DNA of 64,000 nt from Mytilus edulis. Lineage: Eukaryota. Position 1 is the stretch's first letter; each line of letters begins with the position of its first letter. The stretch covers positions 99,944,001 to 100,008,000 of the forward strand of contig NC_092344.1 of the NCBI RefSeq assembly GCF_963676685.1, given 5' to 3'. Made by a program: the position numbers. This document shows positions 18,001 to 33,000 of this stretch, one piece after another.

Positions 18001-21000
18001 GTGCAATGGAATTCGGTTGAGAAGTTATGGAATAACAAAGTTTAATGCGGACGAAGACAATAGACGACAGAAGTTAACCCTATGTGTAATTAGTTTCGTA
18101 AAAGTCTTCAATTTGGAATATATACAGCTAAAAGTGCAAATAAAAGTTATTTAACTCTACGAAAAAATACACTACACAATTAAAATAATAGAAAGCTTAC
18201 AGTACGGAACCATAGTTACAAAAGAATGACTACATATGTGAATGTGGAATCCGTAAACAACTTGCAGATTAAATAGTTAACAAAGGTACCAGGATTATAA
18301 TTTAGTACGCCAGACGCGCGTTCGTCTACATAAGACTCATCAGTGACGCTCATATCAAAATATTCATAAACAGTACAAGTACAAGGTTGTAGGTCATTGA
18401 GGATCCAAAATTCCAAAAAGTTGTGCCACATACGGCTAAGGTAATCTATGCCTGGGATCAGAAAATCCTTAGTTTTTCAAAACATTCAAAGTTTTGTAAA
18501 CAGGAAATTTATAAAAATGGCCAGATTATTGATATGCATGTCAACACCGAAGTGTTGACTACTGGGTTGGTGATACCCTCGGGGACGAAACGTCCACCAG
18601 CAGTGGCATCGACCCAGCGGTGTAAATAGTTATCAAAGGTACCAGGATTATCATTCAGTACGAACAAAACCCCAACTCCAAGGCTAATTAAAATAGGGCA
18701 GTTAATAAAAACTGACAAAATCAATCACCGTCAACCAAAGGAACGAGTGAAATCCTGACATGGCACAGACATTATACGAAGAATACAGCGGATTAATAGA
18801 TATAGGAAGATGTGGTGTGAGTGCCAATGAGACAACTCTCCATCCAAATAACAATTTAAAAAAAGTAAACCATTATAGGTCAATGTACGGCCTTCAACAC
18901 GGATCCTTGGCTCACACCGAACAACAAGCTATAAAGGGCCCCAAAATTACTAGTGTTAAACAATTCAAACGGGAAAACCAACGGTCTAATCTATATAAAA
19001 TAAAAAAACGAGAAACGAGAAACACGTATAAATTACATAAAAAAACGACAACATCAGATTCCTGACTTAGGACAGAATAACTGATGCAAACATTTGTAGC
19101 GGGATTAAACGTTTTAATGGATCCAAACCTTCTCCCTTTTTCTGAAACAATAGCATTACATCATAACATAGAAAAACACACGATAAAATATCAATTGGCA
19201 GGCTTAACTCAATCAAAAAACGTACATTAATACACTATGAACGAATAAATTTGATCTGCGATAACTGAATGTAAATGCACAGTTAATAAATTATTAAAAT
19301 ATTAGGGACAAACATTCAAGGCCAAAAAACAAACAAAAAAGTCCAAACAAAGCAATGTCAAGACACCACTGCGAAATATTTAACCCTTCGAAAATATTCA
19401 CTTTAGAAAAAAAATGGTTTTAAAAAAATACAGGTAAATCTTGAAGTTTATACAAATGTAGTAAGAAGAAGTGAAACCTGGTTTTATAGCTAGCTATCCC
19501 TGCCACTTGTATGACATTTTTTTGTTAAAGTTCCGTTATAATGAGAGAAACATTAGACATTTTTCGAAAAATTCAAAGTTTTGTAAACAGGAAATTTATA
19601 AAATAACTGATATTCATGTCAACACCGAAGTGTTATCAAAGGTTATGACCTGATTTAAGGTCATTTACTAAAATATAAGCAGATTATAGATTCATTTCCT
19701 TTTGATTTGAGACCCAAATAGTACCAATGCAAATATAAGGTAGAAGTCCTTCGAAAACACGACGATGGACGCAAAGTGATGAAAATAATACATTTGATTA
19801 TTTTGGTCAGGTGAGCTTAAGATAAATCAACAAAAGTTAAAACTTTCGAGAGATTATGTGCATCATCATCAGGCGACGACGAAAATTAAAATGTAGATAA
19901 AGTATATGAATTACAATCTGATGAAAGCCTGATCTCTCACTGTTCCGTTATATATTTTTCAATTTTTATTCTTTGTCTCTTACATGGCGAGACATCCAAA
20001 ACAACCAAGCAGAGATGAGAAGTGATCCCGTTTTTTAATAACATTTTTATAGAATATTACTTGGCTTGAGATTTCATACTTAACTATTTAAAGTACTTGA
20101 CTGTATAAACACATTTCAATCAATCAATGTTCGCCTAAGTCACATACAAATAAAAACCTTGTATTGTATAGAAGGACAGATCGTATAAATAAAATCATTT
20201 TATTGTCAATATATGTTAAATCGTCTGAAAATTATTTGTTCAAAACATTGTATCTTTTTGCTATAATTTTACGTTTCAAAATTTTATTTACATTTATTCA
20301 ACCGTCCTGAAAAACGTAATGTTAATGAAAATGAATTTTCCCGGTAACGGATGGTTACTCGTTATCAGTATCATTTGTCGTTTTAATGTAAAATCAATTG
20401 TCACAGTTCAATCCAATTTTCGGACAGAATGAGACGTGGATGTAGAAATGTGGTCAATTTACTTATAGGTTTAATTTTTGTAACCATTATAATATTTATC
20501 AACTATCAATATTCAATATTGATAACTAAGGAAAATACAAGTGTTCAATTTAGGCAACACAAAACTTGGAGTAAACATGGTACTAATATCGTTAATCCAA
20601 AAAAGTTAGTATATAGCAGTGGAGCTAGTCAAATAAATAAGGATTTACATGTGTATGTCGTGGAAGAGCATCACGCTGGTATGTATATCTTTATGTTTTA
20701 TCCTCTGATCATTGTAGGGTCCATTCTGTCTGGTAGTGTTAATGTGATCATGACCTTACTTTCATAGTTAATTTTTTTTTTAAGTTTTCATGGTTCAGTC
20801 TGTTTCTCGTATACTATATTCTATATAATAGTTAACTATATTTTCTGTAAGGAATTATCGTATCGTGCGCATGTCTGTCATTGAACAATGTTAAGCTTTC
20901 ACATGCTATATATATATAAGCAATAGGTTAACTCTGTTTGAAAATAAATAATAAAACTAAAAATTCTTACATCATAAATCTCAGTTCGGAAGAAGGAACA

Positions 21001-30000: not shown

Positions 30001-33000
30001 ATCTAGCTATGCCTTTCAATACAGCATTCTTTCCTACCTTCCGTAGACCACGGACACTGCGTGATATAGAGGCTATGATGCAAAGTAACGATGTTTTTAT
30101 AATGGTAAGTTGTATACATTTGTATATAAATTGTATGCTTTGTTTATATAAAAAAGAAGATTAGGTGTGATTGCCAATGAGGCATCTTTTCACGAGAGAC
30201 CAAATGACACAGAATTTAACATATGTATGTCACCGTACGATCTTCAACAATGAGCAAAGCCCATACCGCAAAGTCAACTCTAAAAGGACCCGAATGACAA
30301 ATCTAGATTCAAACGAGAAAACTGACGGCCTTATTTTTGTACAAAACTTTACGAAAAACAAATATGTTACATGCACAGCAACAAAAGACTACCACTAACT
30401 ACGGGTTCCTAACTTCGGACAGGCACATAAATACAGAATGTTGCGGGGTTAAACATGTAAGCGGGATCCATAGCCTCCCCTGACCTGGGACAGTGGTGTA
30501 ATAGTACAACATAAGAACGAACCATAAAAATCAGTTAAAAATGCTTAACTCATCATAAATATGTCTAACAAAAACAGAGTGGACGTAGCCGGGAACTTAC
30601 ACATCCCAACACAAACAAAATAGATCTGAGAATATTCGCAGTTACTAACAGCTAGTCATCTGAGAGCGTAGGGAATATTTAAACATGATTTTATTTAGTA
30701 TTTATCCAAAAGTTACGTAACAAAGATAGTTTTTACCACAATTAATATTATGCTTGAAGAAAAGCTAAAGTATTCTTCCTATGATGCATATTTATTTATT
30801 TTCGTTGGCGAGGTCATGCGAGGTCATGCGAAGAAAATTTGACAAAAACTTTTGATTTTGTATCAAAATGCCATCAACAGGAACAAGTAAATTCAAGCAG
30901 AAATTAATAGGGTATTGATTTCATGGGAAAATGTTAAACTGCAAAATAATATGTCAAGCTATGTCTCAACAGCTGTAGCTAGAATCCATAGAATTTAATA
31001 TCTGACCGTGGTGAAACTATTCATACTTTATACAACAAAACAGTTTCACCCGTTGAACTAGCGTAAATTCGATAAGGACATCATACATAAAATAATTTAC
31101 CAAGATCATTCGTGTAAATTTTAGCAAATTATACACATGCCCAAAGAGCACCAATAAGATTTTAAAAGTATCATAAATATAGTTTGTTACGTCTGACACG
31201 CACATTTTAGACGTGACTTTTTTTTAATAATTACTTTTTGTGAACTATTTATAAAAAGTGAGATTTAGATATTTTTGCTAAATTAATATATAGAGATGAT
31301 CTCGTGTGGACGTTTTCGCAGCATTTTGACGCAATAACGTACGAAACGTAATTGAAGGCAAACATTATCGGGCGGTTCTTGTGTCGGTGTCTTGTAAAGT
31401 GTACGTCGCATGAATAAATGTGATTCAACTGGCCAGCACTAATTTCAATAACCAACTGTAAATAGTTTTTTAGCTATTGATTATGTTCAATTTGAATTTG
31501 AAGGAAACCTCTGTGCAAGTTTGGATGTGAAAACGTTTTAGATTTGTCTATATCATCTCCATGTTTTTCTTCTTTATATTGAAAGGGTGCCGCTATGTCC
31601 GGTCTTTTTAAGAAGATTGTATGGGTTTGGCCTCAATGGGATGAATCTAACCAAGAAGCAGATGAAGCTACTACAGATTTTAAAGTAGGTTTAACAACTC
31701 TTGAGTTCGACGATTTGGAAGAATATGGGAGAACGTTTTGCATGTGTTTCACCAACTTTACGACATCAAAGAACACGTGCGTTTACACGCCAGTGAATGG
31801 AGATCGAGCAAATATGGTTCAACTTCCCGTTACTTCATGTGATATTCATATAGAATTTGAAGTCATTCTTTTAGAAGAAAGAGTAGCAGCCAATTCACTT
31901 GCAGACAACTTAGGAAATGAAAATATTGTGCTTGACATTGACGAAGACTTTTACGGATGCATCCTTCCTGCTCAAACTTTGGTTGACGTTGGAATCACAA
32001 TGTCCGAAACGGAGAAACTCAACGAAATTTTAGGTAGCATTGTTTGTCCTAAAACTTCAGATCATGATATGAAGGCCGATAAAATGTTATTTAATGTTTT
32101 GGAGATTTTAAAATCTGAGGAAGCTTGTAAACAATTTGCAAAGTATTCTTTATGTAAAGGAGTTGCTCGTCGCCAAACGGCAGTGGACTATTTAAAACAT
32201 CAGATCCAAGCGTTAAAGCTAGATTGTCCCCACAGCGGAAACAAATCATTAATTCTAATTAGAAAGCTCATAAGTAAGATTTCACTTTTTACGAATTCTC
32301 AGTTATCAATATTACAAAATATTGGATTTTGTTTGTATACAATGATGCCTTCTAAGACTACATTTTGGGAGTCAACATTCGGAATTTGTCATGGCAGCAA
32401 CGTTCCTGGTTCTTCTGCAGTGTTTGATCATCCCACCAATTCAACTGAAATCAGTTATCGGACCAAAATTTTGAAAGAAATATTAGAAAGATTAAAACCG
32501 TCCGCTTTACCAATTACGACAATTTGTCGATCAGTTAGAGATGGATATACCCCTAGACACCATTTCCGTCAAATAGAAAATGACGTTGTGAATTCTTTAA
32601 ATATTTTAGAACGAAACAAAATACTTCATTACGACCCATGGTTACTAGGAGGGAGACAGGGTTGGCACGGAAGGCATGAAAAACACGTTGAATAAATGTT
32701 AGATTTTCTTGAAAAATTAACGAGAAACAAATTTGCATGTTCGGCGTAAAATGTTATACGGAAGTTATAATGAAGTAAATGAAATTTAACAACAAGAAGT
32801 TACACTGGTTTTTTTTCTCGATTGGTAAACTTCAAGCTCAGGAACAATGCTTTTTTCTTGATTAAAAAACTGAGTCAAATGCTATAGTCGTAAACCATTA
32901 TTCGGACTGAGGCATGATACCTTAAAAAATTATAAGGGTTGTCTGATAAAAAATGTAAATTGATAACTGTTTTTTGTTGTTTTAGTTCCCATCTTTTTTC

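Follow-up and report, generated by a model that had tools for sequence, protein, structure and literature searches.

A predicted membrane-anchored relative of bacterial peptide arginases, encoded by an intact four-exon gene of the mussel Mytilus edulis

Introduction

The bacterial enzyme OspR and its kin use a binuclear manganese (Mn) center to hydrolyze the arginine residues of precursor peptides, with ornithine and urea as the products (PMC10028609). The verified peptide arginases share three motifs, EEH(N/H)EAF, DXHXD, and LDIDLDYFSC (PMC10028609; PMC12703449), and mutating the DXHXD motif abolishes the activity of OspR (PMC10028609). The Pfam family PF12640 (UPF0489) is described as the peptide arginase family (PMC10028609; PMC12703449). 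In the portions of these sources that we drew on, to which all of our citations refer, the enzymatic conversion of arginine to ornithine inside peptides is demonstrated only for bacterial natural-product pathways; the eukaryotic case is the hypothesis that human C5orf22 is a peptide arginase (PMC10028609; bioRxiv 10.64898/2026.05.28.728550). Here, we describe a gene related to these enzymes in a 64,000-nucleotide (nt) stretch of the Mytilus edulis genome (contig NC_092344.1). We refer to this whole stretch as the window, and all coordinates use its numbering. The gene lies at 20429-32695 on the + strand.

It is very probable that the product of this gene both belongs to the peptide arginase family and is anchored in a membrane near its N-terminus. 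Our full proposal, part of which we infer from the characterized relatives, is that it is a type II anchored, Mn-dependent guanidino hydrolase whose substrate is peptidyl-arginine. We give this proposal about an even chance of being correct. The family is a known one, and a sister species already has a predicted version of the gene.

Conventional arginases and agmatinases resemble the predicted mussel protein in having a three-layer α/β/α fold, a binuclear Mn site of histidines and aspartates, and a central DXHXD motif (PMC10028609). Of their motifs, only this central one is found in the mussel protein, which lacks the flanking GGDHS and SXDXDXXDP.

Results

The window contains an intact four-exon gene

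The gene model is based on a tblastn search of the window with P0001, together with the window sequence itself. P0001 is the ortholog from M. trossulus (RefSeq "uncharacterized protein LOC134689807", 515 amino acids (aa)). The window does not contain any N, and its G+C content is 29-40%. This composition, together with a best protein match of 96% identity to Mytilus, led us to reject a human origin of the DNA. We found one copy of the gene, whose exons are 90-100% identical to P0001:

20429..20678, + strand: exon 1 (250 nt), with the start codon, basic tail, membrane span, stem, and EEHH; 90.4% identical to P0001 residues 1-83 over 83 aa
Donor of exon 1, + strand: G/GTATGT (the slash marks the junction), phase 1
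29108..29169, + strand: exon 2 (62 nt), which finishes the valine codon divided by intron 1 and then encodes 20 residues; identical to P0001 along the aligned stretch, with acceptor ...ttttcag and donor gtaagt
29979..30104, + strand: exon 3 (126 nt), encoding VHIDGHSD...NDVFIM; identical to P0001 residues 105-146
31586..32695, + strand: exon 4 (1110 nt; 369 codons plus the stop), encoding the rest of the catalytic domain, with 12 cysteines and two inserts specific to the clade; 96.5% identity over 369 aa to P0001 residues 147-515

Together, the four exons comprise 1548 nt, or 515 codons plus the stop codon (32693-32695). All 3 of the 3 introns have the form GT..AG. An in-frame stop lies at 20384-20386, and the next ATG beyond it is that of the gene, at 20429. 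In the six frames of the 64-kb window, there are only 13 open reading frames (ORFs) of at least 130 aa, among which exon 4 ranks second in length. On its own, it matches 49 relatives, the best of them at 96% identity (E = 1e-245).

A preliminary description of this DNA had proposed a gene with three splice junctions, and all of the features it named are present on the + strand where it had placed them. The 515-aa protein of M. trossulus, whose RefSeq model joins the exons in the same way, connects exon 1 with the others, as do relatives with intron-free contigs. These uninterrupted relatives cross all three junction positions (P0004, 476 aa on a 2219-nt contig; P0011, 532 aa on a 1739-nt contig). 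Also, many relatives of 365-390 aa begin at or just before the GAAMSG-type sequence that opens exon 4 (we checked P0002 and P0003), which suggests that the position of this intron is old. The full-length results below (Pfam, fold, and alignments) rest on P0001 in place of the joined window product; the window itself was searched exon by exon.

The motifs, family, and fold are those of peptide arginases

The preliminary description had pointed to EEHH, HIDGHSD, and DIDED motifs and to membership in UPF0489. All three motifs are encoded, and they are the three motifs of PF12640; a fourth conserved block lies near the C-terminus:

20663..20674, + strand: EEHH, equivalent to the EEH(N/H)EAF motif; E80 falls on OspR Glu11, and H81 on the Mn ligand His12
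29982..30002, + strand: HIDGHSD, equivalent to the metal-binding DXHXD; D108, H110, and D112 fall on OspR D39, H41, and D43
31931..31960, + strand: 10-residue block with the DIDED motif, equivalent to LDIDLDYFSC; D263 and D265 align with OspR D165 and D167
32525..32554, + strand: conserved C-terminal 10-residue block; S462 aligns with OspR Ser264

In HMMER alignments to OspR (8BRP), its six Mn ligands (H12, D39, H41, D43, D165, and D167) correspond to H81, D108, H110, D112, D263, and D265 of the mussel protein. OspR Ser264 is at the position of Glu277 in human arginase-1 (PMC10028609). The mussel protein's first motif reads EEHHAVL, so the residues after EEHH differ from EEH(N/H)EAF (AVL instead of EAF); the metal-binding letters are all kept.

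E80 and the six putative ligands are invariant in alignment A1, whose 16 sequences were chosen by their Pfam tag only. Among the 62 relatives that bear the N-terminal domain, D.H.D is found in 59 and D-x-D-x-D in 60. We also built a larger alignment, A2, with 85 rows out of 227 proteins (440-680 aa; all three motifs were required, and Hydra was added by hand). Because these rows were picked for the motifs, the invariance of the motifs in A2 is partly due to selection, but the unselected A1 shows the same invariant residues. A catalytically dead binding protein that keeps only the fold would fit with the literature searched, the parts of which that we drew on gave no activity for any eukaryotic member. 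However, from cnidarians and flatworms to annelids and molluscs, the six ligands and the neighboring Glu and Ser vary little or not at all, and we consider a dead enzyme to be extremely improbable.

P0001 matches PF12640 with 54.9 bits (E = 1.8e-14, residues 75-181), above the cut-off of 27 bits, and all 11 of the 11 other relatives that we scanned match PF12640 as well. We also compared the protein to NCBIfam's NF052474, "peptide arginase". P0001 scores 92.4 bits (E = 3.5e-26) and exon 4 from the window alone scores 37.4 bits (E = 2e-9), which are both far below the cut-off of 350 bits; a Chitinophaga protein passes with 405.6 bits. This narrow family contains FlmR and OhkR; the mussel protein is related to it but is not a member. 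The ESM Atlas again pointed to the wider PF12640 family (a mollusc cluster, 0.95).

When we searched the sequences in the PDB, OspR was the sole significant match (E = 3.9e-11 for P0001). A profile of the 85 sequences matches OspR with E = 2.7e-30, in three colinear stretches over chain residues 3-292 of 309. We then modeled P0001 with AlphaFold2 and the 85-row alignment, which gave a mean predicted local distance difference test score (pLDDT) of 89.0 and a predicted template modeling score (pTM) of 0.84. In a Foldseek comparison of this model to the PDB, which the preliminary description had suggested as a check, just three matches had E ≤0.001, and all of them were OspR chains (E = 5.9e-11 to 3.9e-10, probability 1.00, target template modeling score 0.59-0.61). 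The next match, E. coli agmatinase, was below threshold (E = 0.17, probability 0.41). In our searches of the PDB by sequence and by fold, the arginase 4rhm was below threshold too (E = 1.4).

These searches also bear on the reaction, which the preliminary description had given as the hydrolysis of amide or guanidino groups. Arginases and metal-dependent deacetylases have the same α/β fold, and Pfam groups them together, so one might imagine a deacetylase-type amide hydrolase of the secretory pathway that deacylates sugars, polyamines, or proteins. However, deacetylases have a single-metal Asp-His-Asp set, and the ligands here are two His and four Asp in the arginase arrangement. Also, no deacetylase family or structure was found in our Pfam, NCBIfam, PDB sequence, or fold searches. 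We consider a deacetylase to be very improbable. Because PF12640 is the peptide arginase family, the claim can be narrowed to its guanidino half, and specifically to the guanidino groups of peptidyl-arginine; the amide half is disfavored.

Comparison with OspR, and the alternative of a small substrate

OspR, FlmR, and OhkR have the three motifs, the six Mn ligands, Glu11 (E80), and Ser264 (S462) in common with the mussel protein. In OspR and the mussel protein, there is also a conserved CRS..GYTP block at the C-terminus. Unlike the bacterial enzymes, the mussel protein is eukaryotic, is encoded by a gene with introns, and has a membrane anchor followed by a stem. Its length exceeds that of OspR by about 200 residues. 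A strand-rich insert at about aa 165-245, which OspR lacks, contains four invariant cysteines. A helical insert of about 140 residues (about aa 270-410) follows DIDxD, where OspR has its 65-residue dimerization domain (PMC10028609). When we modeled two copies of P0001 residues 65-515, without the 85-row alignment, the score was 0.00, as compared to a mark of 0.32, which speaks neither for nor against a homodimer. OspR Ile73, which is at the site of the proton-shuttle histidine of arginases, is replaced by the nearly invariant Asn141, which is followed by Asp142.

An alternative is an enzyme with the same fold and metal site whose substrate, lumenal or extracellular, is a small guanidino compound, free or conjugated. 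Candidates would be arginine, agmatine, guanidino acids, and glycans or lipids that bear a guanidino group. The clade's own inserts and the invariant Asn-Asp near the active site could reshape the specificity, and at 1 mM, FlmR and OhkR show slight conversion of free arginine (PMC12703449). On the other hand, the closest characterized relatives act on peptides, and OspR leaves free arginine unconverted (PMC10028609). The residues of arginase-1 that bind the α-amino and carboxylate groups of free arginine, and so hold its backbone, are reported to be missing from OspR (PMC10028609). Neither P0001 nor any single exon from the window matched the conventional ureohydrolase family in Pfam, and the fold match to agmatinase was below threshold. 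We think that a small substrate is rather unlikely, and we prefer peptidyl-arginine.

A conserved N-terminal membrane anchor

The preliminary description had described a short basic tail, one hydrophobic span, and a stem, and the predicted protein has all three:

MRRGCRN, + strand: candidate cytosolic tail, 7 residues, basic
20450..20506 (aa 8-26), + strand: hydrophobic span, mean Kyte-Doolittle hydropathy 2.48, interpreted as a signal anchor of type II

In the AlphaFold2 model of P0001, residues 5-35 form a helix, residues 36-63 are disordered (pLDDT <50), and a compact domain begins at residue 72. The topology is predicted from our own hydropathy calculation. There are three arginines ahead of the span and one lysine within the 15 residues after it. 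Together with the hydrophobic span, this charge bias fits an orientation with the N-terminus inside. The predicted architecture is a short tail, a single signal anchor with an N-in charge bias, a stem, and a catalytic domain.

Golgi type II enzymes such as glycosyltransferases and sulfotransferases have this architecture in common: a short basic tail, a signal-anchor span, and a flexible stem. Their catalytic domains bear disulfides and are often Mn-dependent. They differ from the mussel protein in fold and chemistry, and the likeness is of architecture alone.

To count anchors among the relatives, we asked if a 19-residue N-terminal window ahead of the EEH motif had a hydropathy of at least 1.6. 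We began with 65 proteins with EEH and removed 3 spurious matches, which left 62 relatives that bear the N-terminal domain. The span was found in 47 of these 62, usually with Arg or Lys before it, and at least 3 of the 15 relatives that lack it are visibly truncated. In a tree of 50 rows, in which P0001 is placed among the pteriomorph bivalves, 39 rows have the span, and the 8 rows that lack a hydrophobic N-terminus are dispersed over the tree, next to sisters that have one. This scattering is expected of incomplete gene models. In one relative (P0172), the hydrophobic span is at the C-terminus and not at the N-terminus.

Alternatively, a cleaved signal peptide or a cut in the stem could yield a soluble secreted enzyme with the same chemistry, in haemolymph, in mucus, or in the secretions that form shell or byssus. 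The disordered stem in the model would make shedding plausible, some distant relatives (P0226 and P0174) have a classical-looking signal peptide, and the alkaline optimum of OspR suits an extracellular site (PMC10028609). However, the hydrophobic stretch is about 19-23 residues long, it lies within one long helix in the model, and this long span recurs across phyla. The core of a typical signal peptide is shorter than such a stretch. Also, we saw no small-residue cleavage motif directly after the span. We consider a soluble form to be unlikely, and a retained anchor remains our preferred reading.

Conserved cysteines would fit an oxidizing compartment

The window product has 13 cysteines, with 1 in the tail and 12 in exon 4. 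The preliminary description had called the protein cysteine-rich. By content, this does not set it apart, as cysteine makes up 2.5% of its residues and 2.1-3.3% of the residues of anchor-less relatives, and we dropped it as a distinguishing trait in that sense. What does stand is that the cysteines are strongly conserved and that some of them are lost in pairs. One conserved pair is in the strand-rich insert:

31739..31747, + strand: CMC (C198 and C200), the CxC pair of the clade-specific strand-rich insert

The rows of A2 were picked without regard to cysteines, so the following counts are unaffected by selection. C198, C200, C211, and C231 are present in all 85 of the 85 rows; C395 and C414 are each present in 84; C300 and C360 in 80 each; C336 in 74; C327 in 72; C271 in 66; and C460 in 63. 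C300 and C360 are both present in 79 rows, both absent in 4, and found singly in just 2 (Fisher's exact test, p = 1.2e-5), and C327 and C336 are both present in 71 rows, both absent in 10, and found singly in 4 (p = 9.7e-10), although these statistics ignore the relatedness of the sequences, and a deletion common to both (8 and 7 gaps) may explain part of the joint loss of C327 and C336. In contrast, C271 and C460, which are also present in OspR, were not kept or lost jointly across the 85 rows. Being kept or lost together is the pattern expected of disulfide partners, and C300/C360 and C327/C336 follow it. Ten to twelve cysteines are conserved, along with the N-terminal anchor, in molluscs, annelids, a fluke, and Hydra.

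We infer from these features a catalytic domain in the secretory-pathway lumen or on the cell exterior. Instead, the domain could be cytosolic and anchored at its N-terminus, with cytosolic proteins as its substrates, as presumed for C5orf22-type proteins. The orientation of the mussel protein is itself a prediction. Also, a cytosolic, Golgi-associated role for the family is conceivable: human C5orf22 is 16.7-fold enriched in Golgi immunoprecipitates, without strong co-localization (PMC10193996). The preliminary description had noted that vertebrate C5orf22 is regarded as a soluble protein. However, by the positive-inside rule, the charges on either side of the span indicate that it is the N-terminus that is cytosolic, and ten conserved cysteines with pairwise co-loss would fit an oxidizing compartment. 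We consider a cytosolic domain to be quite improbable.

The preliminary description had also listed four N-X-S/T sequons (NTS, NFT, NKS, and NST). All four are present, but shuffled versions of the ortholog have 4.2 on average and 63% of the shuffles reach 4. Only the NFT site (N203) is partly conserved (of 85 rows, 13 have it exactly and 21 have one nearby). Because the number is at the level of chance and conservation is poor, we rejected the sequons as evidence for a lumenal location.

The anchored proteins are separate from C5orf22-type proteins

A profile search of 1.84 billion representative sequences found 1696 proteins with E ≤0.001, of which 793 have E ≤1e-10 and 213 have E ≤1e-30. 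Among 98 rows, 61 have named relatives: 55 from molluscs, 2 from annelids, 1 from a liver fluke, 2 isoforms from Hydra, and 1 from a bacterium. There are no vertebrate or arthropod names among those 61, in a search that sees only proteins that share exact words with the query. A third homolog search, which began from a small alignment of divergent members, reached anchor-less proteins of the C5orf22 type. These include a 503-aa protein from Octopus vulgaris (P0333) and a tick protein (P0332), which match PF12640 with 155.8 bits and 194.7 bits. P0001 is 28% identical to P0333 over 102 residues, and the two later motif blocks are shared as well.

The C5orf22-type proteins are similar to the mussel protein in their Pfam family, the order of the motifs, and their length, and an RS..D.Y.P block is in the same place. 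However, they have higher scores against PF12640 (156-195 bits, versus 36-61 bits for the anchored clade), lack the second Glu of the first motif, lack the N-terminal span, and are on the other side of the tree. This comparison is with sequences of the Octopus and tick type, and does not include a vertebrate sequence. The first motif is EEH in the anchored clade, as in the verified bacterial enzymes, versus DDH, EPH, EAH, EDH, or ESH in the seven anchor-less rows; one anchor-less protein (P0336) starts after the first motif. The hydrophobic span was found in 14 of 14 sampled members of the anchored clade and in none of the 7 C5orf22-type proteins (Octopus, tick, and five related rows), whose best N-terminal window has a hydropathy of at most 0.57. 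So, the anchor, which the preliminary description had reported for the mussel protein, is conserved within the clade.

In a tree of 26 rows, the 14 anchored and the 7 C5orf22-type proteins each fall on one side of a branch, with support of 93 and 94 from the Shimodaira-Hasegawa-like approximate likelihood ratio test (SH-aLRT). This fits with the preliminary description's suggestion of a separate branch of the family in the secretory pathway. The peptide arginase from Chitinophaga is placed beside the anchored clade (SH-aLRT 91), but because it is on a very long branch, we do not rely on this placement.

Several other groups of relatives turned up. In an anchor-less subgroup (P0334, P0336, P0337, P0342, P0344, and P0345), LD(I/L/V)CLDYF is found instead of the family's LDIDLDYF. 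This puts a Cys at the position of the Mn ligand D167 of OspR, which suggests that the metal site is different or lost. P0226 has a signal-like N-terminal segment, almost no cysteine, and GPHH instead of EEHH; it has over 100 relatives, of which the two named ones are from proteobacterial metagenome-assembled genomes. Another protein, P0228, and two proteins from metagenome-assembled genomes (P0304 and P0321) also have almost no cysteine, and 2 of the 3 have a hydrophobic N-terminus. The ESM Atlas also gave two PF12640 clusters of the arthropod "Misexpression suppressor of ras 6" (MESR6 in Drosophila), with scores of 0.87 and 0.86, which by the Atlas's own scale are no more than a lead. The portions of the MESR6 literature that we drew on gave no sign of functional work on it. 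A paper on RNPS1 deals with the splicing of the human C5orf22 transcript and not with the C5orf22 protein.

Some gastropods have multiple copies of the anchored gene: 6 in Haliotis asinina, 5 in Gigantopelta aegis, and 4 in Haliotis rubra, where they are apparently on one 1.59-Mb contig. Other molluscs show signs of tandem families as well, such as two copies in Mercenaria with consecutive locus numbers. In Mya arenaria, two models (P0184 and P0051) are fused to repeat-rich or other domains.

Neighboring sequence in the window

The gene is not in a biosynthetic cluster with a leader-bearing precursor. Its neighbors are a DNase I-like gene upstream and ORFs that resemble mobile elements:

7290-16274, + strand: exons of a DNase I-like gene, ending about 4 kb before the start codon
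24669-27377, + strand: an uninterrupted 902-codon ORF within the 8.4-kb intron 1, the longest ORF in the window, with a Lys/Arg-rich start
27502-27682: an (AT)n microsatellite, shortly 3' of the 902-codon ORF
40767-41516, minus strand: an ORF of 249 aa
44663-45271, minus strand: an ORF of 202 aa, rich in Glu, Lys, and Leu and coiled-coil-like
60630-63772, + strand: four long ORFs (269, 402, 171, and 265 aa) in shifting frames

The DNase I-like exons were found with P0217, a model from M. coruscus that is named DNASE1. In P0217, the DNase domain is joined to a part that resembles a mobile element and to a damaged copy of the anchored gene. The same 68-70 residues of P0217 match twice in the window, at 7290-7493 and at 9465-9674, so one DNase I-like exon seems to have been duplicated.

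The 902-codon ORF does not match any family in Pfam. In the ESM Atlas, it is similar to "hypothetical protein" clusters of arthropods and molluscs (0.96), with a weak lead to DUF7869 (0.89). It is probably a mobile-element gene that landed in intron 1. The series of ORFs at 60630-63772 resembles a large gene with frameshifts, which could be a further mobile element. The two minus-strand ORFs are presumably exons of a neighboring gene.

Discussion

We propose that the gene encodes a single-pass type II protein with a 7-residue cytosolic tail, a signal anchor, a flexible stem of about 40 residues, and a globular domain on the lumenal or outer side of the membrane. The domain would be a divergent peptide arginase with a binuclear center, presumably of manganese, held by H81, D108, H110, D112, D263, and D265. 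E80 would be the counterpart of the OspR glutamate that is proposed to hold the guanidinium group. A metal-bridged hydroxide would attack arginine residues of secretory proteins or peptides at their guanidino carbon, which would leave ornithine behind and release urea. That the reaction is guanidino hydrolysis at a two-manganese site is suggested by the conserved ligands and by the only characterized relatives. The class of substrate, arginine residues of secretory proteins, is suggested by those same relatives and by the predicted topology.

Several observations weigh against this proposal. First, the splicing of the four exons is predicted from homology. Second, the exons give weak results when searched singly: exon 4 alone matches OspR with E = 0.024, exons 1 and 3 alone have no matches in the PDB sequence search, and no single exon from the window matches Pfam at E ≤0.1, with only chance rows at E ≤10. 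Because the matched domain is divided over four exons, the Pfam result does not argue against membership in the family. Third, there are the scores far below the NF052474 cut-off, the Asn at the site of OspR Ile73, the caveats about the co-loss of cysteines, and the chance number of sequons, as described above. Fourth, the bacterial peptide arginases recognize a leader that is encoded in the same cluster, and the mussel gene has no such partner, so substrate recognition would have to differ. Fifth, there is the question of the compartment. The Golgi lumen is rich in manganese and is mildly acidic. OspR has its optimum at pH 8.5 (PMC10028609), so the cell surface or sea water would fit better than the Golgi. 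Finally, our literature search did not find any ornithine-bearing protein from animals in the portions of the sources that it covered. That search, which left most subscription journals outside, also gave no account of eukaryotic membrane-anchored members of the family or of enzymatically formed peptidyl-ornithine in animals.

If the proposal is incorrect, then the gene would be a correctly predicted but ordinary uncharacterized paralog in a known family. If it is correct, then this would be a new modification of animal secreted proteins. It would also give a function to at least 150 clusters at 50% identity (from the full-length-type matches listed, of the 1696 with E ≤0.001), and it would provide a leader-independent peptide arginase for peptide engineering.

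The anchored clade is a good test case for peptide arginases in eukaryotes, as its active-site motif is closer to the proven bacterial enzymes than that of the C5orf22-type proteins. The predicted ectodomain should be expressible as a secreted protein, and the products should be detectable by mass spectrometry, as a shift of -42.02 Da on arginine in mussel secretions. If MESR6 falls in the anchored branch, then fly genetics could be used to probe the function.

More broadly, it is possible, though we are doubtful, that Hydra, flatworms, annelids, and molluscs share an old, animal-wide clade of anchored peptide arginases that convert arginine to ornithine in secretory or surface proteins, which would be an unrecognized modification. 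In that case, the tandem expansions in gastropods would point to lineage-specific sets of substrates, such as shell, mucus, adhesive, or defense proteins.

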